Positions 6,501 through 53,306 of a DNA stretch of 64,000 bases are shown in pieces. The position numbers and the translations under genes are program-made. The notes beneath the pieces were generated by a model. That model saw nothing but the letters and a program-made list of their open reading frames with translations, had not been told where the DNA came from and did not search any database. Position 1 is the stretch's first letter. Each line of letters starts with the position of its first letter. Source of the stretch: Perna viridis (taxonomy: Eukaryota); NCBI GenBank assembly GCA_037379345.1, contig CM074517.1, positions 38,440,001 through 38,504,000 on the forward strand, in the 5' to 3' direction.

Positions 6501-9500
6501 TATAAAGAAGGGTGCTGATATAGAAAAATACACCACATATATAAATAAAACCACCGCATATGAAGATGAAGCCACCGCATATAAAGGTAAATCCATTGCA
6601 TATAAAGATAAATCCACTTCATATAAAGATAAATCCACCGCATATAATGGTAAACCCACCGAATATAAAGGTAAAACCATCGCATATTAAGATACAACCA
6701 CTACATATAAAGATAATACAACCGCATATAAATAAAGTATCGAATATAAAGAAAACAGCACCGCATATAAATATTATTGACCAGTAAGACAGTTACGGCG
6801 TTCCATTGGGAAAGATGAGATCCAGCATTGTGGTGGGGGAAAGTATGAGTCAATTACTGATTTCAAGATGCAGAAAAATACCAATCTAATTAGCATATGT
6901 GTTTTGTGTCTATTTTATTAACTTCTAAGCTATTTTAGAATAAATATATTTTTAATGTCGTTATAAAAATGTCGAAAGTACGTAGTCAGTTATTATAGTA
7001 CTGTTCTCAATATTAACAGTTTTCCAAACTGAACTTTCCTTTTACCAGATTTTAGAAAAGAGATCCGATACTGGTTTCAGCATAACTACGTTCATTTCGA
7101 CAAAGTATTTGTAACTTTTGGAGGGACAATTTTCAGCTAAGTATCGGCATTCCAATAGGAATTAACTATGCCCCTCTCCTAGCTGATCTGTTTCTTTAAT
7201 CTTATGAATCAGAATCTTGTGAAAAATAAAAGATTAAATGGTCTAGATCCGTGTATGTATCCACCTGAACTAGAACTTAAAAAAGACAACTGACACAGTT
7301 CCTTTGTGCCATTTTAGAGCTTCATCTCGAGATCGAATTTGACGACAGTAGTCATATTAATACAAAAATATATGACAAACGAGACGATTTTGATTGAAAA
7401 AATTACAAGTGTCCCTTTCTTGTACAGTAATATGCCAGCTTCCCCTGCATATGGTAATTATATTTCTCAGTTGTTAAGGTATGCCAGGGCTAGTAGCGTC
7501 TATTCTGACTTTTTAAATACACATGAACGTCTCATACGCTGCCTAAAAATGTTTTATTTCTGATATCCACATCTTATTGAAAACTGTTCTGTTTTTGACG
7601 AACATATCGTATTTATATTGGATTTTCATGTGCCTAAAAATTAATTTTTTGTAGATTTTACTATTATTTGATCTTGAACTTGACGCACCATCCACACAAA
7701 GACTTTTTGAAACTTTACATACTTTTTATTGTTATTTTCATTGTTCTTTTTATTTTATTTTATTATTGTTCATATCTTCACTACCGTTTTGTCTACTGAT
7801 TTTACCTATTTTGATCGGTGGCAATTTTATACTGCTCATTTGTGTTGAAATATACCGGAAAATTAACCGGAATCTGGAAGCGGAAGTTCAGCAAGCTATG
7901 GTGACGGGGTCGCTTTTAGTAATTTGTTAAGGTTTATTCAATTATTATTTAAGGCCAAAATTTTGCTACCTTACCTTTTTTAACACTTTATGGTCCTTTT
8001 AGCTCAAGCACCGTTAAAATATAGATTGTTTCCCCATTTACTCAATGAAAATATTTTTAAAGAAATAAAATGATTTCCCTACCTACTTACTCTGTGTTTT
8101 CACAGGAAACAAGACTATTTTATTGTTTTGTCCTTATCAGTTGATATTGAACTTGATTTTACTATTTTTTATTCAGGTGATTAAGTTTGATGCATGGAAA
8201 GCGACATCTAGAAAATTTGCCATCGACATGGCGGGTTTCGCCATCAATGCCAAAGTGTTGTGGGATTATCACCCGATGAGATTTGACCTTTCTGGAGAAG
8301 TAGGTTGGCAAGAGACAGCATTCTTGGAAAAATGTTGTACACTGGAAGAAATAGAACCTTTGGCGGATAATTGTACTAAGGTATGATTCAGTAGTTTGGT
8401 ACAGTACTTTGAAAGGACGAGGCAAATTGGAAAAATCTTAAACATGCATGTAAAAACCTTCCAATCTCACAATACTCTAGGAAGTCTGACTTGCAATTTG
8501 AAATGAACATTGTCTGATCTCCGTATCTCTGAATATGTTAAGAATTTTTTTTCTTTAGAATGCAAAAAAGTTTTCGGCAGAGTTTTCTACCCTTAAGAAT
8601 TTCATTCCAGGGAGGGACTATAAGATCATTTTTTTTTTTCATTTTTAATTGTTTCTGTCACGATCCTTACCGCTTTGTCCAGGATTTTTTCTTCTTTCTG
8701 TCACGATCCTTTAGCTCCTTATCCAAGATTTTTCCCCTGCTTCTGTCACGATCCTTAGCTCCTTGTCCAGGATTTTTTTTCATGTTATTGAATTTGGATC
8801 TGCACCGTTATTTCTATTACTTGTGATCTGAAATCTTATGAGGATTAGCATATTTTTTTTCGACGTGCATGTACAAGTTATATTAATAAAAAAAACCAAA
8901 AAAAAAAAAACCATAACATGAAAACAACAGTGTGATATAAATGAACTTCATGGGCAAGATTTTAAAGATTTAATGGTGTAAACTACTTTTTTGAAGCTTT
9001 TGAAATTTGTCTTTTTTTAATTATTCATGATAGATTTTTGCAACAAATAGCTACATCATTTAATATTCATAAAGCCTAAAAGGTTAGGAACAGACTTCTT
9101 CCGCGGTGAGCAATTCATTAACCCGGAGCAATTGAAAAACGGGTTGCTAAGGCAATAAAAGGTCCAATAGTAATCCTGTGTCGCATAGTCCTGGGTTCAA
9201 CCAGACCCTGAAAGATAACATTTTGTATCCGACTGGACTCATATTAATATGACACCGGGCTTAAAGTTGGAAAATAGAATTCCAGGTTATTAATATCCAG
9301 ATTGAAGAACCTTGACTGCTTAGTAGTATTGTGTCTACAGATTGGAATTTCCTCTCGATAAGTAGCATATTATTGTCTGTTTAAAAACCACAATTATGTT
9401 ATATTCTAAAATTGTTACAATAATAAAGGAAAATATTTATATAACCATCAATGGATGGGTGGTTTTTCAGTGCCCCACAATATTAAAGGTAGTGGAATGA

Positions 9501-18324: not shown

Positions 18325-21300
18325 TCAACTAGATTTGAACATGTCGCAAAGCAATCGCTCAATTGGGATGCTTCCAATTGTTCGGCGGAAGAAAACATCT
18401 TCCATTGCACGTGGGCTAAGAGTGCGCAAAACCGGAAGCATAAGTAAAAGCTTTCCAAACCGGAACTTATTGTTCGACTGTTGCGTCATTATGTAGTCAT
18501 TCAACATCAGCTGGGCTTGGTCTTGTAATAATTCTACCTGGAAGTTTTCTCTTATACCTCGTGCCTCTGAAACGAAAATACCACATTGCCAGCTACAGAG
18601 GTTTTTATATGATAGATAGTTGCCTCCGTGATTATTTAACATTTGAATGTTTATACTTCACCAAAAATGAAGGATATCATTTCCAGACGCGAATACAGGG
18701 ACGGGCGTGCAGAATCCACACACTCTGAATAGGCGGGTGCCAGCCGATGTTCCTCAGGAAAAGGGGGGAGCAAGGACATTATTTGTAAATTTAAAATGGA
18801 TCTGCCACTGCCGGGTGTATGTCCCATAAAATTGGGAAACTATTTCTTGCATGAAATTTTGATTTTTCACTAAAAGACCTTGATATGTACAGTTTTAAGT
18901 CCAATGATTTTGGCCTAGTTCCAATATTCATTTTTGGGGAACTATTGGTCAATAAGTAAGCATAGGTAGCAGTATTTTTGTTGTTGTGTTGTTGGTGTTG
19001 CTTTTAAGTTCTTGGACTAAATCTTGCATTTCTATTATTCCATTTTTATCAATCGCGTAAGGAAAGACACTCGATGATGAGGTTTATTTCTAAAACATAC
19101 CAGGTTTGAAGAGAACCACAGCTTTCAGACAAGCGTATTCTGTAGAATCAACTCTAAGCGCGCCAAGCCTCGATGTGAGATCTTGAACCAACCTAAGTTG
19201 AGCAGCAATCAATGAACTCCGATCACCGCTGTTTGTATCAAACGAAAAACCATTGCTGGCCAAAAGAGCACCTAGAAAACAAAGTTAAGGGTGATGTTGT
19301 TTTTTATGTTAAACTTTTCTTTCATATATTTTTTTTGTGTTTCTATCGAGTATGCTCAGTCAATACTTTCGAAGAACATAAGGAACACTTTCACGCAAAA
19401 ATTTAACAGTGTTTTTTTTACCATTCTTTACAGGGGAGAACTGACTGTGCCTTCTCAGATATCAGCATAAATAATATATGACCTAGCTACGAAATTGCAT
19501 AGGAAGAGTTATCAGCTTCCAAATTTTGGAGCACATTGCGACACGGTTTTATTTTCAAGTCATCAGCACCACTATCGGTCGAACTGCAAAATTGCTTTGA
19601 TCAGGATTCGTAAGGAGATGAATAGCTATGTCTTGTTCTTAGCTTTTTCCTAGTTACATTTCTCGCATGCAATAATGACAACTAGAAAATCATAAAACAC
19701 AGAAAAGTTTTTAACGCTAGACTACTATGGGGGGTTCTTTTACACCATGCGCTACTAAACAGAAAAGTTTTTGGATAATAGTGACTTCAATCATCGTGCT
19801 TGACGATTTTGAGAAATATAAGTTGGTATGGCCTCCGATGGTATAGATGGATGAACACAATGTAGGAATTAGAAGAATTAGGTCTTTTGAATTCATCATA
19901 TTATGTACATTTGTACATATAAGCTTTTGTTTAAAAAAAGTTTCAGCACATTAATTTCGTAAGCATCTACTCGATTTTCGACGATTAGATCGAAGGAAAT
20001 TGGAGCCTTTGGAGAAAATCAAATTCTTAATTTAAAAAACAAAATAGATCCATTTTTTGGTGGAAACCCAGCATCCAGTAGTTTAAAGGGATTTACCCAA
20101 TTAATTGCTACTGCGCTATCACGACCATAATATGATACATGCATGTAAAAGCGATTAGATCATATTTATCTTACCAATATCGATGGGAAGTGACCACTGT
20201 GCTGCACTTAGAACAAAAAGTTCGCACCAAGATTCCTCAAGCAGTATGGCTTGGTCTCTAAATGGCAGTTGCAGGAATGACGGGATATTTTTTGCCCACT
20301 TAACACACATGAAAAGCAGTCTAGCCGCTGTTTCGAATACATTTTCACTACCGGAAGTTATGAAAGAATTATCTGTTGGCAGAAGATTGTGCGAAAACTT
20401 TGTGAACGACTGAGGGGCCTGCTGGTACGTCTGCATGCTGGGGGAAAACATCAACATCTTTGGGGCAAGTTTTGGAGACTCATCAGAGTTAGAGCTCTTT
20501 GGATTGGTAGATGACGTGACGTTGGGACTGTCCGTTTTATCTGATGATGGCGAACCTATAAAACAATTAAAGGACTATAAAGTAATTTTTAGCTGATGCA
20601 AATTTAGAAATTCAAGCCTCTCTGTTATGATTAGTCATTAGTAATTAGAAGCAACACATGCCATGCAGTTGACCTTGATTTTTTTATTGTCATTAAAGAT
20701 TTCGTAGCTTCTGTTCGATTTCTTTTTATTGTATAATGTATACGTTTAATAGATATCGTTCCTTGTCCCATTGAGAATAGCATGGTTTTGTAAGCAAACT
20801 TACTATTATCCGACGATGGTGTAGACTGGGGTTCCGGTGACGGCGTCACCCTGTCATGGCTGTTATCCGTTCGGTCAGGCTCGGCGTCGGACTTTTCAGA
20901 CGGTGATGCACATCGGCTGGTTGTGCTGTTCACTGCTGGATGAATAGGCGAGCAAGTAGACGAGGAGTTACTGCCACCATCACTGTTGTAGTTACCAAAC
21001 CTAGCGCGCATGTCCATCATGTTGCATGTAGGGAAACTAGGAGGGTGAAATGGAGGTCGGCGTTGATCAGGTTGATACTGGAAAGCAAAGGATGACGGGT
21101 AAACCGGGTTTGGTCTGTAAGTTTGAAATTCTGGAACCCTCAGATTAGTGTTGAGTGGCTGGAAATGATGGAGCTGTCGACTGCAAAATTTCATAATAAT
21201 GACTAGTTGACGGCTATACATTTTTCTGTAGTCTGTACGATGAATGTATTAAAACTACCATCACCTTTATTAGATGTGAACTTTAATAATTTACCAGCAG

Positions 21301-24300
21301 AATTTACCACTTTGTCAATAAGTAAAACCAAGGTTTACCATGGTTTATGTAGAGTGATAAGCTATATTTAACTCTATGTTCAAGAGAATGGATATGGAGA
21401 CTGAAACAGAAAAAAAAACTACATAGACATCGAGAGAAAACGAGTAACACAGATGGAAGCTTTGACTAGTGCAGCGTAAGTAGTGTAGTCATTTCTGAAT
21501 CCTAAGTTCTCGTTTCTTGAGATCGACAAAAATACATGTACGATATAATAACTGATGACATGTATGTGGGCGGTCTTCATGAATATAATATGTTATGGTA
21601 GCACGTTTATAACATTTACCTCTCAAAGAATTCCTCTAACCCAAAAGGGTAACCAAACTTCATCTGGTGGTCGTCAGGGTTTTCCCTTTTGTACTGGAAG
21701 CATCTAGGTGACCTTTCATGCTGCACAGCTGCAAATTTTAAAATACGGTTACCGTTTTAAAAGCATTAACATACTGTTTAAAAGTGGTTGTGGACTACAT
21801 GAACACTACCATGGCCTTAATGAAATGCACATTATAGATCTATATAAATCAACAAAATTTTATGAATTACTTCGACTTAAATATTGTGCTTCAATACTCT
21901 CATCCCAACTCCCTGAGATGGTGATGAAGGGACAACATACTTAATGTCATAATGAATAGGAATAAAGTTACGGCGCAACAGTGTACTTTTCGCTGTTTTT
22001 ACTAATCTCCGCAGACATATAACCGCTTCCTGATAAATACTAAGTATCTCTCCGCTAGCTGATGACAATTGGGTTTTTTAACCACCTTGAATATTAATGC
22101 AGGCCTCTCTCACGGTCGATGTTATTGGTTAGTAGAACCAATTGGTCTTAGTGGCGGAACCCAGCCTTCGAGATACCTGACCGAAGAACTCGGTCAGAGT
22201 ATGTCCTACTAGCCGCTATACGTTGCTGTGTTGACGCTCTGGCCTACCACGATCCTACGTGGGTCCAAGAGCATTTCCCCAATCTATTTGTGAGTACGTC
22301 ACCGTGTAGAGTGCTTCCGCTAGCTTATAGATGTAACTCTTATAAATAACGAATATACCCTCTGCACTGGATCAAAATGCTCCACATACATTGAAACATG
22401 CATGAAACATTTTGTTGTACATGTATTTAATTTTATAGATAATCATTAGGACCTAACCTACTAGACCGGAAGTAGATTGTTATATAGATAATCATTAGGA
22501 CCTAACCTACTAGACCGGAAGTTGATTGTTACATAGCTAAGTTGAATTATTTAGGTTTCTGTCCTGATATTTTTATATGTCATTTTTTTCCTGATTGTAA
22601 TCACCTGTTTCTTTTTTATTCAATGGATACTGTAAATAATAACTGCTAAGAACAAAATTGTGTGATACGATATGACTGAACACTTTGATAATAACTTGAC
22701 TCATGAGGCACATATCAATTTTATAAGATTACTAAAATGGTCATTAACATACAACGAAGATTGGGCAAAATCGTAATGAAAGCATAATTCAAGCAGAACA
22801 AAGATAAAAGCAACAAAGGAAGACAAATTCGGGCTGAAATCAGTGGTACAATTGTGAAGGTTCATAGATATATATATATAATAATCAATGATGCTTCAAG
22901 ATGTGTAATGCTGCATCTCCAAAATAGGTTAAGTTCTTCTCCCTGCAGTAGTCAGACTGAAGATGGCCAAAAGACACTAGCATACATGTACCTCAGTGGT
23001 TATGTACCGCAATGCTAAAGGATTTTAAAGAACAAAATTGCAACAAGGTACAGAGCTATAAGTATAACCAAGTTAACTTTCAATTATTTAATGTTTAGTT
23101 TAATTCAATCCTATGCATATAACTCATTATAATCATATTTCATTTTTGAACTCAAGTTTTGTTTTTTATTAGTCCCAGTCCCTTTTCTGCATGTATACTG
23201 CGACGTGAAAAAAATATATGTAAATATTTTATTATTATCTTTTTAAAAATGAATTTTTATAACGAAAAAAGAATTTTAATTTGTGGCATAAAAAGAAAAA
23301 AAATAATAAAAATTGATTTTATAATTATTTTGCCTTAATCATCGTAACAACTCATTGGTTTACAGTTTTGTTTTTACAACAGAAAAAATATAAAAATTCT
23401 GCATTTTGCCTAAGTACTTCTTTACCTGTAATTCACAGCTAAGGCGAAACGGGAACACTCAAATGTTCTACAGTCCCTACCCTAAAGTATCAATTATTTC
23501 GCGCTGAATTGAGTATTCTTAAAATTTGCTCAAATGTTTCTCGTCCGGCGTTGTATTGTAGTAAATGATTGCGTATATATACCCTGGTATAAACATATAG
23601 CCTAAATTTTGGAAGTCGGATATCACTTCACAGAGTAAGTCAAAATCAAAATTGTTACAATCAAGTACCCTATTATCGACGACTTAATCAGCACGCGACC
23701 GACGTGATGTCAAGCGCGTGTCTTAAGCTTAGTCTCTCGAGTGTTTAAACAGGGCATGACTGATCACCAATTAGCGAAGATTTTTGTGAAAACGAGATAC
23801 TTGAAAATTTATCAATATCACGAAGTAATGCGTTAAATCTTTACTTGAATTCTGTTCTAAAGATAAATAAATCCACATTTGTTTCCTTCGAGTTATTGAA
23901 CAAACTAATTAATATTTTTACAAGCAGTGACAATGCTTTGAGAAAGTTTGTTTTGTTTTTTTGTCTTTTGATTCAACTAAGTAATGAGACAAGCCAAAGA
24001 AGAGTATATTAAGATTCATGAAATTTAATATGAAATTCCTGAAGGGGGTCAAAACAAAGTGCTTTTTATAGCGTTACGTGGTAGTGGGGGAATTGAAGAT
24101 AAACTTCACCAATGCTTACACCGAAAAATGATTACATTAATAAATATATTTTTGTACACAGAATTGTTAATTTCTATTTTGCTTTTTTTTTAATACCGTT
24201 ACCTATTCATGACTCTAATATAATCTGAGGGAAAAAAATAAATAATTTTAATGCTGACTGTGTTGGTAAAAAAAAATGCACTGCACACGTGTACTTAATT

Positions 24301-27300
24301 TCGTCAGGAGGTTAAAGAATAATTTATAATTTACTTAACAGTCTCAATCTTAAAGGGAATCGTCAGTTAACTGAAAATAGTGACATTTTCTGGAATCATA
24401 GTAATTTAAAAAAAAACCTAATTATTCATCTTGCAGAGGACACACATCTTTGGTGCTAATAATAAAAAAGAACTTTACTATTCTTATAATTCCCTGTAAA
24501 TGAGATATGAGAATCATTCTATTTTGCTTATTACTTTACGTCTTTTTCCTCAAACGGCAATTGATTTTATATCTGTTACTCCGCGTTATGTTGCTCGTTT
24601 TACATTCCCTGAGCAGAAGAGCAAGACAAACTCTTCATTTGATCACAATTACATCAATTATCAACGTAATTATCTAATCTGACAAAGAAATAAGTACCAA
24701 AAAATCTGCTCATCTGTCGTTTTCTCAAAATCATGTTTGCTTATAAGCGTTTAAATATTTACAGAACATCCGGAACTGAACTCCTCAAGAAACATAACTC
24801 CAGACCAGATCATCCTCCGATACTAAATCTGATCATGCGCAAACATTTTATTTCGAGTGTTTTTCAAAAAGCTTTGGTCATATCTTCAAAAGGGTGTAAC
24901 AAAGAAACGTATGCTGCGATAGGGAAAAAAATCTATAAAGACGACGTATGCGTCACTATGAAAAGGTGAAAATTAGAATTCCTGCGATTTGATGCAAAAT
25001 TTTTAGAGGTCGAGGTTGTTTTTTTAAATAACTTTTGTGCCTCTCTTCCATTGTATTGATTGGAGACAAACATATCCAACTTTTTTATCGAAATGGAAAA
25101 TAAAAATATATTAAAATCAGTAGAAAGTAAATTTGAGCCTGCATGTGTATAATAATGACTTGTATATCTTACCATCCTTATTCATTTTGACTTCAAGACA
25201 TTTTTTGAAGCGACAGGCCTGACATTGGTTTCTTCTGGCGACGTCGACTATACACTTCCCATTCTCTTTACATACATAGTCCAAACTTCTTCGTATACTT
25301 CGTTTGAAAAAGCCTCGGCATCCATCACAGCTCATAACACCATAGTGCTTCCCCGACGCCTTGTCCCCGCAAACCCGACATAGCGATTCCGGCTTCCTTG
25401 TCACGTGTACATTATCTGTAAAAGTGCATTTAAACCAATTATAACGTCGATTAACCAGTGGTAAATCAAAGATGGTGGGTACAGAGGACCGGTATACCAA
25501 CTTTTTTTTGAAAAGTTTCCTTGACTTCGTGTAAAATTTGAGAAAAATGTGCCAATAAATTTAATGATAGCCTGGATTCCTATTTTCACGAACTCCCTTT
25601 TTTTCAATATCTTTGGACCCGCCCATGCTATTTGGCATCTGATTTTTTAAGGTTTGGCTAAAACCAATTTTTTCCTTGACGTTTTCACTATATTTGGATA
25701 AAGGGCTCGCCTCAGGTTTGCACACGAATTTTGGTACTACAATTTATTCAAGTAAAATGGAGACAATACTTTGCAAATATGCACATCTTTCAGAACTTAT
25801 GCATATTTGCAAAGTATTGTCTCCATAAGTTGTGTCTTATGCCAGTTACATTACATCCACAGTCATTTTAACAGTGGAAAAATGTCGACATGACTATCGC
25901 AGTTCCAGTGGCGGATCCAGGATTAATTCCCATGTTTTGATACACCTTCCTGCGCCTGGTTGATATATATAGCCCTGTTATTAGTATCTACATGTTAGTC
26001 TTCCATGTCCTTTATATATATCGGCAATAAGTATTAATTACTTTTATATTTGTCATACAAATTGGCTATGAGTTTTTAGCAGCATTTATGTTTTCCCTTG
26101 CAATTCATTGTCTTCCATAGGAACGTTAAAACCAGGTTTTCCCTTCCTCTGGTAAATGCTGAGATCTATATTTTGTTTATTCTTATAAAATGTACATTTA
26201 AAAACATGTAATTACAATGTCCACTTTTATAACCATGCATAAAAAATGCAACTAATCGACATTGGCGCCTCGTATTAGTACTTTTCGGCAAGAAACGAAA
26301 AAAATGCATGCATGTATACAGACCACATGTTTATATAGCATTGCTGTTCAACTATATGAAAATCCGTTACATGAAGCCGAAAACCAAATGGAATGTCGTA
26401 TGCAAGAGATATATAACTTCCTGGAGTTACTGTTTCCTCGATCCAGTGCAGGATATCAGTAAATACAATTATAGCCTATAGGCAGAAATTAATTTCATGT
26501 TATCAAAATTACTGTCTGCCCACGTTTAGGCGAGTATACATACTGCACATTTTTTTCTGGAATCTTCTTGAATCTGTGCCTGGTTTCCAGAATTTTGGGA
26601 TTAACGACAACCGTGGAACCAACTGGTACCTTTCTGATTGTCGTTCGGTGACTATTCATTTAAGATCCCTAGTGATTTTAACTTTTGATACAATGTTTGT
26701 CTTTATGAAGAAATTAAGCCCCCCCCCCCCAACTCTTTTTCCTTTATTATTTGTTTCAGAGTTATAAATAGTTTAACACGAATAAAATGACCGGCTTGAA
26801 GGCAGCTGTTTATTCAATATGTACATCATGTTTACATTATGGTTTGAGACTAAACAGCATGTGGTTAGTTTAAACATATTTATTCAAATATAAGCACAAG
26901 CAAATACAGTGTACACATTTACATACACTCATGGTAGGATTCGGAAAGAAGCTAGATAGCTTATACAAAGTTCCGTGTCCTTAAGAGTATTCTTATAAAT
27001 AAGATGCATGTGGAATGGTTTTCATAATTGACTTGTAAATAAGACAAACGAATAGAAAAACAAAAATGGAATTACAAAATTAGTGTGGAGATGCAGTACA
27101 TGGAAGTCATGCATTTATAAACCTTCTACTTTTGATAATAAACTTCTGAACTTTAAGTAAAACTGCTACATTTTGTTCAGCATTTAGAATATTTGAGCCA
27201 TATAATACATTTACAGTAATAGGTACATCAAGTGCCATAGAAAATATGATTTCATTTCGTAATAAAGTATATTTGGGACAAAAGAGCAAAAAATGGGAAG

Positions 27301-30300
27301 TTGATTCGACATGACCACAGGTGCAATTAGGGGAATTAACAAGGTTACGACTGAACAGATGTTCGTTGAGTGAAGCGCTGTTCTTTCGCAGTCTGGCATG
27401 TAATATTTGCCCAAGTCGTGTACCAATAAAGTAAAGATTCGGATAATTTATCAAATGTTCCTTAATCTTATTTCTAAAAATGTTAGTGGAACTAGAACTC
27501 CTGGTATTTTGAGGAAGTTTGTTCCACAATTTAACTGTTGATGGCAGAAAGTATTCAGAATAGAAGTTAGTTGTCGTGCGAATTTCTAAACTATTTTGTG
27601 ATTGTCTAGTATAATGTCCATGCAAGGAATCAGCCGACTTCGGAATTAACGATTGCAAATACTCTGGTGTTTCCCAGCATGTGGTTACAAAGATTAAAGA
27701 GTCGACAATGGGTCAAAAGTTGGATTTATTTGGTAAGAAGTAAAAAAGTCAGACATTATAATCTCTCTCGCCTTTTCAACAAGAATTAAACGATAAAAAG
27801 CAAGAGTAATCTCCCATTCAATCTTGCAATAACGCGTAATAATATAATGTTGAGCAGAAGTAAACAGGTTACTTATTAGATATATAATTCAATCTTTTAA
27901 TAAGGTGTTAAAATCAATATTTGTAAATAAAAACAAACAGGCCATTTATAACTTAATTAGGATAATTTTTTGTCCGAATGCGCCGTAACTAGGCGCAGCA
28001 AACGTAACCATTCGACAATTAAAGCCGAGATCAATAGAATGTAAAGAATTACAGTTCCAGAGTGAAACTGTGTCGGGATACCTACACTGTAAATGATTAG
28101 TTGCAAGTATGCATGGACTTTTAGGGGTTGGGTTCAGAAAATTATAAAGGTTGAGGTCATGGCTACCATTTGTTCATTTTTGCACCAATTTTCCACGAAA
28201 TTAACAAATTTTTTCTACAAATCTAAAGAGGGGTGTGGTTTCAACCAACGGAACCCCTGGATCCGCCACTGACTTCTCATACTTCAAAGATTTTTTTTTC
28301 AATATTAAATGAGAAAGTACTTGATTGTATGCTTTCCTGAAAAGAAAGGACAGAAATGTTTATCTTGATAAATTCAACATTCAGTAAAATTAAAAAGAAT
28401 AATAAATTAGTGAAAATTAGCCGTGTTTTAATGGTAAAAAGGAACTAAATACAAATAAAATATGAATAAAACGTAAAAAATATTGAAAAATATGAGCCCC
28501 AGTTGTGGCTATTGTTCACTAATTCATTATTCTTATTAACGTTTGATTTGAGCCACTTCAACAGATTTTTTTTTATCTTGTAAAATAAAAAAAAGAAAAG
28601 GAAACAGCAACTGCTATTCAGGAGAATCCACAGTTCCGAATACAACCAACCTAGCGTTTTTTAAGCATTTTACAGAAAACTTTTTTTATTCAAATTTTCA
28701 TTTTAGCTATAAAAATTCTTGGATCTCTGATTTTTTTCGCATATTTTAATTTTTTAGACTGTCAATTTTAAGTAACCGATGACTTGGTTAAATGTTTTAA
28801 GAGGAATTATCTATAAGCATAAAAAATAAAAGGAAATGCTGGGTTTCCGAAAACAACAAAACTTCCGCAGTTTTAGGGACCCTAAACTGTACTGATGACG
28901 ATGATTGGGGGGTTTTAACGACCTTGAATACCAATACAGGCCTCTTACGGTCGATGTTAGTGGGTTAGTAGAACCAACTGGTGTTGGTGGCGGAGCCCAG
29001 CCTTCGGGACACCTGATCGAAGAACTCGGTCAGAGTATGTCCTACTAGCGGCTGGGCTGCTGTGTTGACGCTCTGGCATACTCCCAGACCTCACGTGGGT
29101 CCGAGAGCGTTTCCCCACTCCAACTGTTTGGGAGTACGCCAACGTGAAGAGTGGGAAACGGTACTGGAAAAACCATGCTTATCTAATTTGTTTCCCATGG
29201 GAACCCTTATTCGTGTAAAAGCTTATGAAAAAAAGTTGTTTTCTTATTGATCAAAGTATTACAACATAAAATATAGTCACCATGTACAATTTGTCTTTAA
29301 TATATACATGTAACATCTCATTTCAAGAACAAAAATACACTGAACTAAACATGTATATTTTTCTTTAAAATACCGATCAAAACTGTAAACGTTTCAATTA
29401 GAAGGGCGGGGTATTATTTTACCAGGTTGTGAAAGTCCTAAAAGTAGGGTTATCCCCCCGTTTGGAATACTTCCCCTGATATGGAGGGTTTTACCCATTA
29501 TAAAATCAGAAAGTTTAAAAAAAAAATATGCCATATCAAAGATGAAAGAGGGGATATTTATTGTATTTGAAATATATTTTTCTGCTGAAAGACCACTTTT
29601 AAATTTCATATTTATAAAGTTGCAGACCTCAAAATATTTCATTTGATTAGTATTATAATGGAAATAAAACTAAACTTCCTTTTGTAAAAGTTATTCAAAG
29701 TTACACAAACATTCCCACTTTTTAACAATATTTTATAATAGAAAACTTTACATTTATTATAATGGATGAATACAATCCATATGAGGGGTAGTACCCCAAA
29801 TTGGGGGGGGGGGTTAACCCTTATTGCTAATCCTGACGGTGCACCTGGTCCATGCCCTCAGTTTTCAGTTGCTCATTTACTTTTGTTACTTTGAATGTAT
29901 TATTTTGGTTATTATATGTTCTTTGTTGTTTGTGTCTGTTTTCCATGCCTGATCTTTGTCCCTCGATTACATTCTTTTGATTTCCGCTAGAATCTTGGTT
30001 CCCTTGATTACTCTTCCAGGACTTGTTCCCAACCTGTTCACACAAAGTCTTTGCCTCAAAATATACCCGACCTATACAAATTGCTCGTCTAAAATATGGG
30101 TCCTTCATTTGATTTCAAATTTTTTCTACCCTTTGTTCCCGTAAAATGAAATGAGTTAACGACATCATAGGTATTTCGACGTTTTACACAGAAAACCAAG
30201 CTTTGCCATTTGACATTATAATTTGCAAGTTAATTTGAAAAAATATGAAGGTAAACGAGTATGCCCTCAAAAGGTACATCCGACGCAATGACGTATGCTT

Positions 30301-39400: not shown

Positions 39401-39985
39401 TTTTGTTCTTAATTAGTAACAGCGCACCAAATAGAACGGATCCTGGATTTCATGATATGAACGATATAAACTGAAAGAAACGAGGCAAACAGTTGTTTTG
39501 GGGGTATAGTTCGTGAAAAAATCAAGATTTCATGCAAACTCCACCTCCCCAATTTTAGGGGGCGTACGCCTTGTCTGTCCTCTATATGAATCCGCGCCTG
39601 TCAAATTCAGTCGTAGCCATTATTGAATCTTTTTTTTTTCGACAGATGTCCCGAAGAGTAATCTCCCTTGTCGCATTTCCAACACCACCACTCAGCCATA
39701 CTTAAAAAAAAGAGCAGCCCGAATTTTATTTGTATTTGCAATTCCCAATTTTATTTTTTTTAATTTTTTTGGGGGGGTTGGGGGTATTTGGACATGGGCA
39801 TTTTCCAAAAATGAGGCCTTTTGCGCCAGTTTACTTTTCGACTTTCATAGTTAAATGAATACAGGTAACTTTATATTTGATATTGTTTTTGTGCTATATT
39901 AAATGCGCGGTGTGGTTATTGTATGTTATTCACCATTTAAAAAAAAAATCTCGTTATAACTGGTTGTTCATCTCTTTGGCAAGTA

Positions 39986-40498
39986 GGCCCGTGCAGGTCC
40001 GGGTGTCAAAAGAATAGGCCTGCAGCAGCGCTAAGCTTGTCGTAAAAGGCGACTAAATAGTGCACAGGAACCTAGCCGGAGGCTAGGCGCTCTGCCCACA
40101 GAGCAACTGGGATGTGTGTCCAGGTGATGGAATGGGGTACCCCTGACGTGTTACATGCTGGGGTTGTCAGGCTATAATACGGAAAACCTGACCGCAAACC
40201 ATAGTGGTGCACCGTGTTGGGAAAGATGTCACGTTCGTCGCACGTTAAAGAACCCTGCTGCTGTGGTATTCGATAGGAGTAGGAACCTTTGCGCTCCGCC
40301 ACAGAAGGTTAAATGTCCGACCTTGCCCAATCCCCTTTTTCTAGTGGCAATCAAAGTTTGTCGACCATATAGTCCTTGTGTCCCATCCTTTTTTTTTTAA
40401 ATTTCATGTTCATTTTATCATCCATTTCATGTTCATTGTCTGAATATAGCTGAAATATTACTGCTCGGACGTTAAACCCCAACAAACAAACAAACAAA
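39986..40498 (+). mobile_element. Structured SINE-like retroelement family 1, copy 2
   Basis: Perfect 14-bp TSD CTCTTTGGCAAGTA at 39972-39985 and 40499-40512. (CAAA)n tail. Confidence 0.92.
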
Positions 40499-41454
40499 CT
40501 CTTTGGCAAGTATAATCATAAAAATATAAGAAATATAAGACTTTTATTTTAGTATAAAAATGTAAGAACAGACCCTCCTCTTTTTTCCTGGCTTGGGGCC
40601 GGCAGCTTTCCCTGGCGGAGTTAATGTTAAAAAAGTTATTTTGATATATCATGGAGATATCTTTAATCTCCTTATCTTTTATTTATTCATTTCTAACTCA
40701 TTTTCTTTATTTTATGATCGTTTTATTTTAATTTTTTTTACCTCATTGATATTTTATTTCCTTATTTGTATTTGGCGCAAAATGTAGTCTTTTTACACTG
40801 TATTTTAAGTCATCAGTTAATAAATTTTGGTTATTCACTTTCCGATTGATTGTCCTGTTATAGTCGGGCTCTATATTGGATGGAGGCAGCGATAATCATA
40901 AGCAGCAGTCCATTTAAAATTCTGATAGTGCTAATGATAGAAATGATTCATGGTATAGAAAAACCCACCGAACAAACGATGCATTTTTGTTATACGCATA
41001 TGTTATATTTTAACGTCACAATAGTCCTTACTGTATTTAAAAACTGTATTTTTTTACGAAAACCATAAACACGGAATTTTTTTTGTTAAAAAGAAAATGA
41101 AATACTAAGTTATGTGTTATAACAGCAAATAATGCACTTATTCTATCCATATGACGTTTTTTGATATGTGGTGGTCGACTGGTATATAGGACGTCTTATA
41201 TATGTAAATATATATAATACCAATCATTTTGACATGTTGATGTAAAAACTGTTTTTAAGCGTGTTACAACTACATGTTTAAATTTATCTAAATATTGTCT
41301 AAAAATAGATTTTGAGTTACTTCCCTTTGTAATACACCCATTGATTTAGTGTTTGAATTTGAACTTCCTCGTTAACAACTCGGGATTTTCGAAGCTGTAC
41401 ATTTTCAGGTATACATGTAGATAGATTCTTGTTTGATTTTCTAATGCGAGTAGT

Positions 41455-43382: not shown

Positions 43383-44143
43383 TACTAAACAGTGGAGTGG
43401 GCTTGAGTTCATATACAGTGCATATTAATGCATTTAACATGCACATTATGCCCTAGAAGACCGCATAATGGGGTACTTTAATTTCATTTTAACAAAAGTT
43501 TTATTTTATGTGATTATGAATATAATAAGCTATCATTATATAAAATGAAAAATAGAAGAGTAAGCGTCTGCTTCATCGTCAAGTGAGTCGTTCGGTGGTC
43601 TTCGCGAGTGCTTTTTGAAAAAGGGAGATAATTGATGTTGGCAAAGATTTGTTCAATCATGAAGACCAGAAATTAAATTACAAAAATTTAAATACCTTAC
43701 ACATTGAAACATGAAAAATATGATATTGTATTGCAAGGTTATTTTTATGTGTTTTTCCATTGTTCTTTCTTTAGATTTGAAAAATCTTATCTTTAAGAAT
43801 TAGACCGTTTTACATGGTAACTTAATGAACATGTCAACTTCGGTAACACACATATATTATACAAGCACCATGTAATATGTTAAATCCCGAACACTGTAGT
43901 GATTAGCATATTTGTAGTGTTGCATAGTATTTTCACGTGTAATTTTCTGATTGTCGATTGCTTTTTCGCAAGCATATGTTTACAACCGAACTGAAGGCTT
44001 TATTCACGTGAAAATCTGATGTTTTAATTCGTATGTTATTATTATTATTATGTATTTTTATCGATTTGGTCTTTATTTCTCTATATCGTATATTTAGATT
44101 AGAATATAACTGTTTTTGTATATTCATTGTAAGTGTTTGTTTA

Positions 44144-44800
44144 ACCCTATATCACACCTCTAGACCTATCTCGCATACCCTTTATTACACCTCTAGACCT
44201 ATCTCGCATACCCTTTATTACACCTCTAGACCTATCTCGCATACCCTATATTACACCTCAAGACCTATATCGCATACCCTATATTACACCTTCAGACCTA
44301 TATCGCATACCCTATATTACACCCTAGACCTATATCGCATACCCTATATCACACCCGGTGGCCCTTGGGTTAATATAGGAGTCATGGGTTGATACAGCAT
44401 GTGATACAGATTTTGACATGTAATATTCTATTCAATATATATGCATACCCTATATCACACCTCTAGACCTATATCGCATACCCTATATTACACCTCTAGA
44501 CCTATATCGCATACCCTGTATCACACTTCTAGACCTATATCGCATACCCTATATCACACCTCCAGACCTATATCGCATACCCTATATTACACCTCTAGAC
44601 CTACATCACATACCTTATATCACACCCCTTCACAGACCATACTTGAAGTCTGGTTATAGTATATGATATAATGAACATGACATGTTTACATCTGTATCAA
44701 CCTTCGACCTATATCACAGCGCGGGTCGGTGGCCCTTGGGGAGATATAGGAGTCTCAGGTTGATACAGCATGTGGTACAGATTTTGACATGTAATATTCA
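44144..44800. repeat. 33-bp minisatellite in two blocks, each followed by a shared ~70-bp unique segment
   Basis: (ACCCTATATTACACCTCTAGACCTATATCGCAT)n at ~44144-44355 and ~44444-44625. GGTGGCCCTTGGG...GACATGTAATATTC at ~44357-44428 and ~44728-44799. Confidence 0.9.
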
Positions 44801-45190
44801 GTAATTATCACTCCCTTTTCTATAAAATAAACTACAGGTACATGGTGCAGAAAATGTATTTTTCTATTACTTAAGCCTATGAGATATTTTTCGGAAAAAT
44901 GAAAAAAGGTGGATATTACGATCAAATCATTGCGGCTAGTACCTGTAAACATTTAGGATCTATTTTTAAATATCCTTGAAATTTTTGTAGATAACACCAA
45001 AGTAATTTTCCTTCCTGTTTAGCTTGAAATTTTGGAGTACAATTAAATCAAATTAGTTACGCTATAGCATAAGGAAAAAGCTTTAGAAACCGAACAGTGG
45101 CGAAATTCTAAGCGTTGTCAAGGTATAGTGAATAAATATTTCAAATTTAAGTTTGTCGAACAACATAAACTTATACAAGTTGTATTTTTT

Positions 45191-45705
45191 GCCCCGTACA
45201 GATCCGGGTGTTAAAAGAATAGGCCTGCAGCAGCGCTAAGCTTGTCGTAAAAGGCGACTAAATACTGCTCAGAACCTTAGCTGGGGGCTAGGGCGCTCTG
45301 CCCACAGAGCAACTGGGATGTGTGCCCCAGGTGGTGGAATGGGGTACCCCTGGTGTGTTACATGCTGGGGTTGTCAGGCTATAATACGGAAAACCTGAGC
45401 GCAAACCATAGTGGTGCGCCGTGTTGGGAAAGATGCCACGTTCCTCGCACGTTAAAAAAAACCCTGCTACTGTGGTATTCTCCCGGAGTAGGAACCATAT
45501 GGCTCCGCCACAGGAGGCTAAATTGCCCGATCCTACCCACCTCTCCCTATTTCCAGTGGCAATCAAAATTTGTCGACCCCATTGTCCTTGTGTCCCATCC
45601 TTTTTTTCATTTCATGTTCATTTTATCATCAATTTCATGTTTATCGTCTGAATATAGCTGAAATATTACTGCTCGGACGTTAAACCCCAACAAACAAACA
45701 AACAA
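45191..45705 (+). mobile_element. Structured SINE-like retroelement family 1, copy 3
   Basis: TSD ACAAGT(T/A)GTATTTT at 45175-45188 and 45706-45719. Confidence 0.9.
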
Positions 45706-46034
45706 ACAAGTAGTATTTTGATTTTAACAAGTTCAATGTTTTGATTGGTCAATTCAAATTTAAAAAGACCTGCCATTTTTTTTCATAAATGTTGCATTTC
45801 GAATACCAAACATTCTTTTATGTCCCTTTTACAGTGTTTTGGGACATGTATTTCCTTATCGTTTTTTTTTTTGCGATTTTATTCCCTCATCAGGAAAAAT
45901 TGTAGAGAATGTGTATATGCAAATCAGTATATAGGGGGGTTCAGCCCTCACCAATCTAATTAAAATTAAATCTTTAATTATGCTACCCCCCATAAAAGGT
46001 GACTTGGCACAATACAGATCGTGTATTTTAATCA

Positions 46035-46115: not shown

Positions 46116-48193
46116 GTTGCTTTTTTGTGTTCACTTTTATTTGTTTTACGTTTGTTATATAGATTAGGTAGATTTTCGTCTTTTATGAATAGTTTCACAT
46201 CATTTATTTTGGGTCTTTTTACAGCTTGCTTTATGGTATGGGTTCTACCCATAATTGAAGACCGTGTTGTAACATGTAAAAGTCTAATTGTTTGTTGCTA
46301 GCCATTTGGTTGATGACTATCTCATTGGCGATATAACACATCTATTTTTATGTATACTACATGTTTTATTTAAAACAACTTTTCTTGGTATTACTACTGG
46401 TCTTGAACATTCAAAACTAGAAATTTCTATAAAGAAAGTCAGAACTAAACAAATACCAGTCCATATAATGTTTAGAAATTGTCTATTGTAGAGGTAATTC
46501 ATGGCGTAGAAAAACCCACCGAACAAACGATGCTTTTTTTCTCTGCATATGCTATATTTTAACATAACAGTAGTCCTTTCTGTGTTCAGATTTGTATTTT
46601 ATCATTTCCCACTTAAATCAACCAAATTAAGAACAGTAACTCTTGCACTCAATTTCATACACAACATTTATCTCGAAAGTGCAACAACCGAATGAAAATA
46701 AGACCTCTTAATTGCTTTTATCTGTTTCTGTATTAAAAATAAAGGTGAATTTGGTGGATTTATGACATGCATGAATCCAACTGTCTGATTTTTTTATATA
46801 AAGAGTGCTACTTTAAAAAGTCGACAGTTCGACTTTAAAAAGATTCGTATAAATACGCTTTCGTGTGGTACAGATTTGATCTTTTCCGAAAACAATTATA
46901 CTGAATCTTAATCTATGACAAAAATTAATGTTATGATGTATTGTAACAGAAATGCACGGAGACAGCAGTTAAGAGCACGAATAAGTTGCAGGCAGAAGTA
47001 TTTGTCATTGTGTAAATTGGGAGGCACCATTCTCCGAAGCTATGACCATCTGATATATAGTAATATTCCGTTTAATTTTTTTCCCTTTTCTATCGCTGTA
47101 TAAAATATATAATCTTATATTTCATCCACTGATAAACGACATCTGTACTTTATTTTTCTTTAAATTTAAGTGGAAGGCCCGCCGAGCATTTCAAAATTGA
47201 AAATTTAACTATCGAGATTGTAGAAATTTAGTATGGCCCAAAAGGGTACAGTTCTGTTACCCTTAAACATTAAACTGTTAAATAGTGTTGTGATGTTTCT
47301 TGTTCGTGTGAAAAACAAGTTTTGATGAGGTAACATGCCAATCTCGATCCGACATGTAGGATGAATTCGCTGTTTTAAAGTTTACGCCTATTCCACAATC
47401 AGTACTCAACCCTGACTCTTTATGAAAATAAGTACAATACAACAAAAATAACTTCACAGATTTGTAATGAGATGTGCTCGTGCCTTATGAATGTTTTCAC
47501 ATCCTGTATGCCAGAGCCTATTATTTAGCGAAGTGATACGTAGTGAAACAGGAAGTGGTTATTTGCGGAGGAGATAGACAATGAAACTTAAACCAACCTT
47601 CTGCCGAAAACAAACATTTCTCCAGGGTAGAACATGCTTTTTATCACAGCGATCAGGGGAGTGAAAATTAAACAGAAAGATGTTTCATGTTGATCCGTGG
47701 TTTTATTTTCAGTCTCTCTTCCTGATGTTTTTTTTATTGTGCTTCTTGATACCGGTGGTCGTTTTGACAATAGCCATGAAAAAATAATAATGTGGGGCAG
47801 ATTTAATCTGTAAGTGGTCCAAGTTTTTAGCTGGAGTGGCATTATCGATGACGACACAAGTTTTAGTAGAACGTGAACCATTTTTCTGTGTGTTTCTGAC
47901 ATGTTCCATCTGTTTAGATACGAAGCTAGCTTACTCTACATTGAATTTTTTTTTTTCATTCGGAACTAATTTGCTCATTTTGCTTATACAAAAGTCATAA
48001 ATCCTGGAGAGTTCCGCTGGATGTAACTTCCTGTCAGACTGAATCAGGCTTTCAGTGCTTTTAATGTTATATCATTAACGCTAAGATGATTTCGTCCTCT
48101 ATTAATTTTAATTCTTATATGTTTTCTCCTTTGAAGGTTGGTGCACGATTTGAATAAACTAATAGAACAACGGAAATTAAATACAAATTAAAG

Positions 48194-50005
48194 ATGGATG
48201 ACCGCGACGAAGACGCCGAACGCAGGGAAAATGATAGGAAGAGAAAAAGCAATTTTTCTGCGACGATTCGAAACATGGCCGAGATGGGTCTCAATGGAGA
48301 AATGGCAGACTTGGAGATCATTGTCGAGGGTCAAGCATTCCCTTGCCACCGACTCATTTTATCTGCAGTATCACCCTACTTTCGAGCAATGTTTAATTCA
48401 GGTATGATAGAGTCACATAATGGCAAAGTTGAGTTGCCGGATGTGACGAAAGACGTTTTCGAAATCATCAGAACGTTTATTTACACGGGAAATATCGAAA
48501 TGGATAAGATTAATGAGGAGAACATTTTTGATATTTTGTCTGCATCAGCGTTGTTTGAAATAAATGCTATGCAAGAAGAATGTGAAAAAGTGCTTGGTAA
48601 CGAAATTAGTAACGATAACTGTTTGACCTTGTTTAAAATGTCGCGAATGTTTGGAGCAAAAACGTTATTCGAGACATGTAGACCATTTATCATGGAAGGA
48701 TTTAACGGTCTTTGGAAATCGGAGGAGTTCACCACATTACACCAGGAGGATTTAGAAAGTATTGTTCGAGATGACCAACTTGTTCCTGTTGATGAAGAGC
48801 AAATATGTGAAGCCCTTCTAGCATGGATTCACAAAGACCCAATAGAAAGACAAAAACACACGGGCCGGTTATTCAAACATGTGCGCTTCATAAATATCAG
48901 TCCGGAGTACTTAATTTACGAATTATTTACACAAAAGACACTCACTGAGGATAAAGACTGTAAGCGATATTTGGAGGAAGCGCGCGATTTTCATATGCTT
49001 CCAGCTCGACAACACGAATTCTCGTCTGTTAGGTTTCATTTAAGAGACAGTGATGACTACGAAGAAGTGATTTTAGTTCTAACAGAATTCGACATGGAGC
49101 GTTCTGGATCATTTTATCAGGACGGAAAATGTCTCTGGGCTTTCAGTTTGCAACAGAGTAGGTGGTTTACACTATCTCCTCTTCCACACAAGGAAAATCC
49201 AGGCCTTTTTATGAATATGGTTTCCTACAGGACAGACATATTTATTACGGGCGGTAATGAATCGAAAACGTCGAAAAATCTTCTCAAGTATGACTCGGAG
49301 AAAAATGAGTTCAACCTTGTGCAAGATGCAACATTGAAAAAAGGTAGATTTAAACACATGATGATTGCAGTTGGTGAATCCTTGTATGTTATCGGTGGTT
49401 TAATCGACAGACAGAGGAAGGATGGTTCGTATCCGCTTATAGGAACAATAGAAGAAATCCAAGTTCACGGGAAAAGATGGCGAGTCGTTGGCGAACTAAA
49501 AACACCTGTTCATTCGGCAAGTATAGCTGCCTCTGGTGAAAAAGTTTTCGTTTTTGGCGGAATTTTAGATGACGGTACATTCTTGAACAAAGTTCAAGTC
49601 TTCAACGTGCGTTTGCGCGAAACTGAATACGCATGTGACATCAGTAAAAATATAAGTCAACCTTTTAAAGTCCTCCATTTTGGCGGGAGAATTGTTGCAT
49701 TTACAAGCAAGGGAGAAATGTACGACTTTGACTCAGATAAATTAAGATTCGAACTTATTAAGAAGATACCAGCACAATATTTGCCCATAATGGCAGTATC
49801 GCATTACAAGGGCTGTATCATACTTCTTAGTGGTAGAACAGATATGCCCCAGTGCTACAAACAAATGTTTAAAATAGACTTAAGTGTAAACCCAATGAGA
49901 ATTGAAATAATCACAGCAAAATCGACAAGTAAGCCGAAACCGATTCACGCTTGTCAAAGGGGAAGAGTCAACAAGCAGTTTATGTATCACACGTATTTTC
50001 AGTAG
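48194..50005 (+). CDS. BTB-BACK-Kelch (KLHL-like) protein, 603 aa, single coding exon
   Basis: BTB (FPCHRLILSAVSPYFRAMFNSGMIES, FIYTG), BACK (EEQICEALLAWI, LFKHVRF) and kelch GG repeats (IFITGG, LYVIGG, VFVFGG). Acceptor ~48136 upstream; AATAAA at ~50598 and ~50651. Confidence 0.93.
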   Translation: MDDRDEDAERRENDRKRKSNFSATIRNMAEMGLNGEMADLEIIVEGQAFPCHRLILSAVSPYFRAMFNSGMIESHNGKVELPDVTKDVFEIIRTFIYTGNIEMDKINEENIFDILSASALFEINAMQEECEKVLGNEISNDNCLTLFKMSRMFGAKTLFETCRPFIMEGFNGLWKSEEFTTLHQEDLESIVRDDQLVPVDEEQICEALLAWIHKDPIERQKHTGRLFKHVRFINISPEYLIYELFTQKTLTEDKDCKRYLEEARDFHMLPARQHEFSSVRFHLRDSDDYEEVILVLTEFDMERSGSFYQDGKCLWAFSLQQSRWFTLSPLPHKENPGLFMNMVSYRTDIFITGGNESKTSKNLLKYDSEKNEFNLVQDATLKKGRFKHMMIAVGESLYVIGGLIDRQRKDGSYPLIGTIEEIQVHGKRWRVVGELKTPVHSASIAASGEKVFVFGGILDDGTFLNKVQVFNVRLRETEYACDISKNISQPFKVLHFGGRIVAFTSKGEMYDFDSDKLRFELIKKIPAQYLPIMAVSHYKGCIILLSGRTDMPQCYKQMFKIDLSVNPMRIEIITAKSTSKPKPIHACQRGRVNKQFMYHTYFQ

Positions 50006-50739
50006 CATTCTTGTGAATTTAATTGTGTATGTATGTATATTGTGATTTTATTCCGGTTTTAACAGTACAGTCGAAGTTTTAAACTTCTGTTGTATATTAT
50101 TTTGTTGTTTTTTAAATTGTACACAAATAAGACGAAATTGATATAATCAGAAATTGTCCATGCCTCCCTCGTTTTTTCTGTTTTTCATCCTCGTCCAAGC
50201 GTACTTGTCGGAAATGGACCACACTTGGAATTTAGAGCATATATCAAATATAAATGTACATTGTTGCTTCAATTCATTGGATGCATCTACACCCCTCTCA
50301 CAAGGTCGATAATATATGTCAAGTATTGCAGTTTGAACGTCAATGGCAGATACATCCGGCTTCAATACTTGACAAGTTTGCGATCGATTATTTCGCTAGA
50401 CAGTGTAACGGAGTGATCTAAAGGAGGAGTACAGATATATGCATGATATGATATATACATGATGATTTAAGGGAAGCTTTGTCGACTGATTTTATCTTCA
50501 CGCTGTCGTGCTGTATTTTTATAAGAATATTGTACATAAGCAGAAAGACTTTTTTTAAAGAAATTGTTGGTTTGCTTTGATGTAATTTATTTTTAAAAAT
50601 AAAATATTTAAAGAAATCGTTTTTTTGCTTGGATATAATTTATTTTTAAAAATAAAATATTTTATCTTAAGAGTTCATTAATATCTTTGATTGGGGTCGA
50701 CAGGACATGGGAAAATGTCCACCATTTAAGGCATTTACT

Positions 50740-52460: not shown

Positions 52461-53306
52461 TACATGATAACTTCGGTAATATCGATTTCTTGGTATGGCG
52501 CTGTTTTCGTTGTCCGGACGAGTGTATGGCTCTCTGTGAACTATACCAGAAGGTACTGCCGGTATATCTAGCACAAAAGGAGGACGTATTGTTTTGGGGT
52601 CGTGACTTGAACCGAATAGGAACAAGGGGGCAAAAAGAAGCATTTTTCTAATGTCAAGGCAATAACTTACAGATAAATGTTGATGGACCTCAGTGAAATT
52701 TTCCAACAATTTCTTATACTACAAAATGAAGACTGAAAGTTGTGATATGAACTGTCCAGAAATTGTGTGCTATATCCAAAAGAATAGCCAAGGACGTTAA
52801 AAATTCACTTTGTAGTAGTAACTTACGCGTTTGCAATACAAATGCATATAAGGTAGTAGTATCGACTTGATTAATTGAAATTTTATTATCAATCAATTCA
52901 TAAATAACTATAAACGAAGGCAGTCATTCCAAATTATACATCCGAAAGTAAAAGTTAGTATAAACGTATATCTATTAACTTCATCATACTTTGACATACT
53001 GCGCCGAATGTGTTATAGTTCTTATCCAACTATCAAATCTGTTCCCCAGGTAAGTTCGATTCTGAAAAGAACAAAAAAATCGTGGATCAGATACTTGTTA
53101 CTTCTTTGAGGTGAGGGAATAGTATATGTTATATTTGACGAATCTCTATTTTAGAAGCTTCTAAAATCGAATTGTGGAGGTCAAGATATAATTGAAGGCT
53201 TCCTTTATGGTAATTTTATATAGACTAATACCACTATCAATACACATTGATGTTCCTTTTTGGGTAGTTTAAATAGCTCTCCTTGGGACAAAATGTGCCC
53301 TATATG

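Follow-up and report, generated by a model that had tools for sequence, protein, structure and literature searches.

A dispersed short retroposon family with a predicted HDV-like ribozyme head, a LINE-like tail and a TATA-like motif upstream of many of its insertions

Genes and repeats at the locus

The window, meaning the whole stretch of 64,000 nucleotides analysed here, carries the exons of a nuclear receptor gene with zf-C4 and ligand-binding domains on its minus strand (20158-25560). Two single long open reading frames are found on the plus strand, one for a BTB-BACK-Kelch protein (48158-50002) and one for a glycosyltransferase family 10 fucosyltransferase (62790-63935). Minisatellite arrays with 21-, 33- and 41-nt units are present at 5520-6750, 44078-44693 and 50709-52495, and the array at 5520-6750 makes a large inverted repeat. 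A short repeat family other than the one discussed below occupies 4734-5250, 39981-40499 and 45186-45707, and by eye its head looks like the LP-SINE head of PMC4758252.

A non-coding element of about 255 nt, without an open reading frame, lies at 29153-28895 on the minus strand. It is 3.3 kb upstream of the zf-C4 exon of the nuclear receptor gene and on the same strand. The sequence-only reading of this locus had placed a member of a SINE family at 28895-29155. The element is real, and an alignment of 30 copies sets its start at 29153 and the end of its ATC-type tail near 28895, so that the two leading C residues fall between the target-site duplication (TSD) and the element. The 5' TSD copy is at 29156-29166 (11 bp, with one mismatch to the 3' copy and followed by the two extra C) and the 3' copy is at 28884-28894, next to an A/C run and (ATC)n-type tail at 28895-28918, all read on the minus strand. 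A second, older copy on the minus strand (22061-22313, 83% identical, with TSDs at 22316-22325 and 22051-22060) sits in sense orientation between two of the nuclear-receptor exons. Both copies had been called full length with TSDs, and this is confirmed, except that the second has lost the 3' strand of P3 and has a broken P4 in the ribozyme fold described below. Its loop-E motif is kept.

A dispersed retroposon family

The element belongs to a dispersed family in the host assembly, an animal genome of 723 Mb in 46 contigs. The genome search gave 1361 first-look candidates; the best 40 were scored, and the 39 best other copies are 90-94% identical. The exact core pattern of the element is present at 141 places in a genome pattern search. 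TSDs are found in 69 of the 91 copies with an intact 5' end, and 38 of them are 11-12 bp long. Just 12 of these 91 copies have a G at -1, showing no excess of cap-derived G. Tandem copies from different subfamilies have one TSD in common. The copy at 29153-28895, called the window copy below, departs from the majority of its subfamily at 7 of the first 165 positions. Four sets of RNA-like contigs cover the element, and the contigs show neither 5' ends nor strand.

The earlier description of the family as SINEs holds for its dispersal and its TSDs, but not in the strict sense of a Pol III head derived from tRNA, 5S or 7SL RNA. A tRNA scan found no tRNA, and no Rfam match and no A or B box were found in the element; the head is not recognisable as such a derivative, in agreement with the sequence-only reading. 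Rfam searches at gathering and E-value thresholds gave no meaningful match for the window, for five subfamily-B loci or for the head of a LINE (L228) that is described below. The variable TSDs, the repeat tail and the absence of an open reading frame fit a bipartite LINE derivative. The family may already be catalogued in Repbase or Dfam.

Related sequences are also found in other settings. A degraded copy lies inside a 5.8-kb tandem unit (loci L110 and L131; the end of contig C1, and C25), and near-identical matches to the tail are present on the small contigs C43 and C45. At L130:8783-9137 (contig C14), five tandem units of about 73 nt have the tail of the element but differ from it further upstream. 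One copy, L008, is inserted in a member of the above short repeat family with the LP-SINE-like head, behind a TATA-like motif.

Predicted ribozyme fold of the head

For the first 90 nt of the element, a complete self-cleaving ribozyme fold of the HDV-like type is predicted, with P1, P1.1, P2, P3, P4 and a cytosine in J4/2. An earlier claim that the 261 nt are structured is borne out, as they fold better than shuffled sequences (z -2.74, with 1 of 200 as good). In the window copy the predicted ribozyme occupies 29064-29153 on the minus strand, and the predicted cut is just 5' of 29153. P1, of about 7 bp, starts at nt 1 of the element. Its 5' strand (29147-29153, nt 1-7) pairs with 29116-29122 (nt 32-38), at 7 of 7 positions in the subfamily A majority and at 6 of 7 in subfamily B and the window copy. 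The 5' strand of P2 (29136-29143, nt 11-18) pairs with 29064-29071 (nt 83-90), and all 8 pairs are present in A, in B and in the window copy. P3 (3 bp, nt 19-21 with 29-31) and its 7-nt loop L3 lie at 29123-29135, and CC in L3 pairs with GG at 29114-29115 to form P1.1 (nt 23-24 with 39-40). The P4 hairpin (29080-29108, nt 46-74) has 12 bp (nt 46-57 with 63-74), of which all are paired in A and B and 11 in the window copy. The strands follow the nested double-pseudoknot order of HDV, with P2, P3, P1.1 and P4 complete in both subfamily majorities.

J4/2 (29072-29079) contains C-A-G-A, a cytosine followed by a conserved A: of the 112 copies, 102 have C79 and 107 have A82. By analogy with HDV we infer that C79 (29075), rather than C78, would be the catalytic cytosine. 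The positions equivalent to U20 and G25 are C and A in L3 of the window copy.

The fold was compared with controls. A generic HDV descriptor matches at nt 1 of natural copies, the window copy included; 1 of 3000 dinucleotide shuffles gives any match to the descriptor, and none matches at the start. A strict descriptor is passed by just 14 of 51 copies, and the descriptor gave two weak matches on 29 LINE-region loci of about 10 kb. When the HDV fold is applied to 51 copies, 92.8% of the cells are paired, versus 27-45% in slid controls. The covariation score of the fold is reached by 1 of 500 shuffles. The count of pairs changed on both sides is not above that of the shuffles (476/500 and 320/500).

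The sequence-only reading had proposed a different structure, a multi-pseudoknot with a 13-bp helix and a kissing loop that might function as a ribozyme or as an IRES-like or protein-binding RNA. It was right in seeing an HDV-like pseudoknot, but it took P4 and J4/2 to be missing, and both can be recognised when the family is used to assign P2 and P3. All of the complementarities it listed exist in the window copy, where the long helix is the minimum-energy fold, and an 8-bp core of this helix is possible in both subfamilies. The complementarities are due in part to substitutions private to the window copy. None of the four distinctive helices is perfect in both subfamily majorities, whereas P2, P3, P1.1 and P4 are complete in both. 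The 13-bp helix has 13 of 13 pairs in the window copy, 11 in A and 10 in B. Both the kiss between the loop and the 5' end and the GGACAT/GTGTCC helix fall from 6 of 6 pairs in the window copy to 5 of 6 in A and in B, and ACGCTCT/AGAGCGT, with 7 of 7 pairs in the window copy and in A, has 6 of 7 in B. A near-majority copy is predicted to form P4 and P2. The subfamily changes described below fit the HDV-like fold and break these alternative pairings, and it is highly improbable that they are the functional structure.

The HDV-like fold is therefore preferred for the family, and the window copy is a special case. Through two of its substitutions, a helix in which P3, L3 and J4/2 are sequestered becomes perfectly paired. 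Since this helix is its predicted best fold, the window copy, which keeps the ribozyme core, is probably a poor cleaver. Other copies have lost part of the fold. Deletions across the 3' strand of P3 are found in 14 of 112 copies, yet these copies start at nt 1. Seven have the same 4-nt deletion, and two of the seven have three further changes in common. Either such copies stem from a source with a dead ribozyme, or slippage is frequent at this site.

Subfamily changes and the ribozyme

The differences between subfamilies A and B are located where the HDV fold tolerates or predicts them. The older subfamily B makes up 15 of 112 copies, and further B copies were found in later searches. Eight majority positions and one inserted base in L3 set it apart from A, and all of these fit. 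The changes consist of a two-sided change in P2, two P4 pairs that go from G-U to Watson-Crick, a shorter J1/2, a seventh P1 pair and the change in L3. The compensatory pair in P2 is U13-A88 in A and A13-U88 in B. Among hand-picked rows it is A-U in 10 of 10 from B and U-A in 10 of 10 from A; across the 112 copies, 12 have A-U and 91 have U-A. The covariation support comes from few evolutionary events, with one two-sided pair, and all of them fit the fold.

The loop L3 has 8 nt with the canonical U..G in B (6 of 8 rows). In A it has 7 nt with C..A (37 of 43 rows), and the window copy likewise has C-A. Judging from these sequences, the younger subfamily A replaced the canonical U-G of L3 by C-A. 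In the antigenomic HDV ribozyme, C/A is the single active double mutant of the U-G pair and is 232-fold slower, and the authors remark that mutants of this kind had not been found in nature (PMC3386971). There is precedent for C at +1 in the ribozymes of L1Tc and SIDER (PMC3185411, PMC4035085).

The loss of U-G from the young subfamily, together with the P3-deleted copies that still start at nt 1, would suit another explanation, in which the head acts mainly as a Pol II promoter inside the element, the HDV fold is a relic that cleaves slowly or is decaying, and the 5' end is set by transcription rather than cleavage. The head can also be read as having an initiator-like start and a DPE-like AGTTA at +28 to +32 from A2, labels that assume agreement with the consensus motifs. 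Against this, the DPE-like motif is also lost in the 4-nt deletion, the subfamily changes in P2, P4 and L3 preserve the fold, and G is not in excess at -1. We consider a head that is mainly a promoter unlikely. A possible variant of it is a dual role like that of Pr77 in L1Tc, which is both promoter and ribozyme (PMC3383444). The predicted ribozyme remains our preferred reading of the head.

Body hairpin

The body of the element contains a hairpin at 28995-29057 (nt 97-159, minus strand). In its internal loop, AGUA (29043-29046) stands opposite GAA (29003-29005), and the loop is closed by helices. The motif was said to persist in the diverged copy at 22061-22313; it does, and it is found in all subfamilies, as is the long hairpin, which the diverged copy also has. 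A loop-E reading of this internal loop is compatible with the sequence. In the family alignment, none of the 21 pairs of the hairpin is changed on both sides. The hairpin is unchanged between the subfamilies and so gives no independent support for a loop-E function. A K-turn reading of the loop was rejected by eye because the order of G and A is wrong.

Tails and a LINE partner

One head and body occur with either of two different tails. Two ACUAAC motifs at 28956-28969 (minus strand) of the window copy are also kept in the alternative tail, and at least two such motifs are present in 46 of 87 tail-1 copies and in 15 of 25 tail-2 copies. We take them to be a candidate site for a STAR protein (Quaking/SF1). 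The terminal stem-loop (28919-28953, minus strand), a putative recognition site for reverse transcriptase, covaries across tail 1, tail 2 and the 3' end of a LINE found at loci L061-L067, with compensatory changes.

The tail of the element resembles the end of this LINE. The last 47 nt of the element are 81% identical to the 3' end of the LINE and share its stem-loop, as would be seen in a bipartite derivative of an autonomous LINE. The LINE encodes APE, RT and RNase H domains and has an upstream ORF-like region; a regex search found no 2A motif in it. The partner of an Ingi/Vingi derivative would be a single-ORF element of that clade with matching ends. By its domain order it is presumably a member of the I group (Nimb-like). 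It ends in a TTAG repeat, and its 5' end is unlike that of the element. Because its terminal repeat differs from that of the element, it is possibly a sister family. It is likely that an RNase-H-bearing LINE mobilises the element.

The short element and LINE-type sequences also occur side by side. Ten of 134 copies adjoin a LINE-type tail, several of them visibly with one common TSD (11 rows were flagged, one of which was spurious), and two LINE copies of the L061-L067 type have inserted into repeats that also contain the short element, at nearly the same position. Tail-only LINE-type inserts of about 55-60 nt adjoin element copies with a common TSD at L092, L100, L106, L153 and L365, and these inserts carry further compensatory variants of the 3' hairpin. 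In bivalves, SINEs that share 35-61 bp of their tails with Nimb LINEs have been published (PMC11481361).

No LINE with the element's head was found by RNase H and RT family searches, by tail and head patterns, by a protein search or among the best-scored candidates, nor was one found in 20 further RNase H loci, in 20 long-ORF loci or with a covariance model run on 44 sources. The case for a bipartite LINE derivative is thus half made, with the tail accounted for and the head donor missing.

A second LINE was rejected as the partner. The L228 type has a different tail, and none of its 18 junctions has a TATA at -35 to -29. It is a young two-ORF LINE with APE, RT and RNase H domains (L228:1244-7300, contig C15) and has 122 matches, many with a 1247-aa frame. 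It has its own predicted HDV-like ribozyme at its start (L228:1244-1390, folded by eye), with a 7-bp P1 from C1, an 8-bp P2, the canonical U..G in L3 and a U-U in P3, and 13 of 26 fetched copies of this type begin exactly at the predicted ribozyme start. At loci L283-L305, one 5'-truncated LINE insertion has been amplified many times inside another repeat.

A TATA-like motif upstream of many insertions

Many copies of the element have a TATA-like motif at a narrow range of distances upstream. The sequence-only reading had noted neither this motif nor the exchange of tails nor the link to a LINE. In the flank of the window copy, a motif that matches TATAWAWR at 7 of 8 positions is present at 29178-29185 (minus strand) and begins 32 nt before the element, and the second copy has a TATA-like motif at 22337-22344. 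In the family, TATAWA starts at -33 to -29 in 25 of 81 copies, versus 0.9 per control window. TATAWAWR (7 of 8 positions) starts at -34 to -29 in 42 of 78 copies and does so in all three subfamilies; in 56 copies the count is 32, versus a control mean of 2.9. The signature was replicated with a test fixed beforehand on held-out copies. After 6 with damaged 5' ends and 5 flagged as tandem were dropped from 40 new copies, 16 of the remaining 29 had the motif, versus a control mean of 1.47 (about 5%; p 7e-14). About 45% of copies are without it.

The motif is found solely upstream, about 20 nt before the TSD. At -32 the sense reading has it twice as often (18 vs 9 of 56 copies), and its position varies slightly less relative to nt 1 than relative to the start of the TSD (sd 1.44 vs 1.89). 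A position of about -32 is the textbook distance from a TATA box to a transcription start. If transcription from a TATA box began close to nt 1, some sources might do without cleavage. At locus L013, at least one target is TATA-like merely as codons of another retroelement. The sites therefore need not be promoters, and the signal is one at the level of sequence and no proof of promoter use. In the LINE of the L061-L067 type, the motif is present at 2 of 9 automatically called junctions and at 3 more by eye, a thin link to TATA for the LINE that shares the tail.

Targets that are not promoters are also in keeping with another account of the motif. It accepts the ribozyme and holds that the -32 motif reflects only what the LINE protein prefers in nicking or bending DNA and plays no part in transcription, with expression by read-through only. 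A full TATAWAWR at the textbook distance, upstream only, biased to the sense reading and tighter on nt 1, speaks against such a preference. In its favour are the split signatures upstream of TSDs in RTE LINEs and the binding of R2 at a point some 20 nt upstream of where it nicks (PMC13295347), and L1Tc too has an upstream pattern (PMC5814959). This account overlaps the explanation that we prefer, is compatible with most of it, and has a substantial chance of being correct, though somewhat below even.

Discussion

Overall it appears that the element is best explained as a ribozyme-headed non-coding retroposon with a tail like that of an RNase-H LINE, which captures TATA-like DNA on insertion and trims its own RNA. 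We give this explanation as a whole a probability of roughly 70%. A LINE protein complex would bind TATA-like DNA about 20 nt upstream of the first nick, either directly or via TBP, and integration would place nt 1 about 32 nt downstream of that DNA. Transcripts driven by the TATA would begin one or two bases before nt 1. Lacking a Pol III promoter, the new copy would be transcribed from the captured TATA or by read-through from the host or from tandem neighbours. The ribozyme would cut away everything 5' of nt 1, giving unit-length RNA and freeing monomers from tandem arrays. The 3' stem-loop and the repeat tail would recruit the reverse transcriptase of the LINE for target-primed reverse transcription. 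The body hairpin would most likely be a docking site for a protein or the ribosome, inherited from a LINE 5' UTR, and this is the weakest step.

A more specific version joins these steps. The LINE and the retroposon would as a pair target TBP-bound TATA boxes, land where transcription starts and so capture an external promoter with each insertion, the ribozyme would remove the capped leader, and the active subfamily would use the swap from U-G to C-A. We regard this joint reading as tentative and rather doubtful.

By comparison with published systems, the element appears to work like NARTc/RIME and the R2/R1 hybrid SIDEs (PMC3383444, PMC3414825). NARTc, RIME and SIDER of trypanosomatids, which belong with the L1Tc-ingi clade, are likewise non-coding retroposons (about 260 nt) with an HDV-like ribozyme from C at +1, and they have TSDs, tandem copies and a non-random upstream pattern (PMC3185411, PMC3383444, PMC4035085, PMC5814959). 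Unlike them, the element has an animal host, a 12-bp P4, a loop-E-type hairpin and a tail like that of a two-ORF RNase-H LINE, and an autonomous element with the same head was not found among the loci examined. The upstream signatures also differ, being a TATA-like motif at about -32 for the element and a pattern adjoining the TSD for NARTc, RIME and SIDER. The R2 SIDEs and R2/R1 hybrid SIDEs of Drosophila are similar in having a ribozyme head, a LINE 3' end and transcription from outside, and in forming tandem copies one TSD apart that are interspersed with the mobilising LINE (PMC3414825). Unlike these SIDEs, the element is dispersed rather than specific to rDNA and has two exchangeable tails.

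The mollusc LP-SINEs share with the element a non-tRNA head, a Nimb-related context, TSDs and a repeat tail, and no ribozyme is proposed for them in PMC4758252. Their head is homologous to the 5' 68 nt of Nimb-17, whereas the head of the element is a different sequence, with 0 of 6 motifs found, so that the element is not an LP-SINE. TRE5-A of Dictyostelium and Ty3 of yeast, which act via the TBP-containing TFIIIB, offer a precedent, since they integrate at a set distance from a site bound by TBP (PMC5911963). These two target Pol III genes, whereas the target of the element is a bare TATA-like motif at which the role of TBP is hypothetical. Among the papers listed by a literature search, there was no report of TATA-spaced targeting, which is a weak indication of novelty.

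Ribozyme-headed non-autonomous retroposons were already known, and what is added here is the strong, replicated signature of TATA-spaced insertion. Insertion at this spacing would explain how a short element without a promoter of its own is transcribed. It could also place copies at the start sites of TATA-driven genes. The family further provides a natural pair of ribozymes, with U-G and C-A in L3, that is a ready test of the level of catalysis a retroposon needs.
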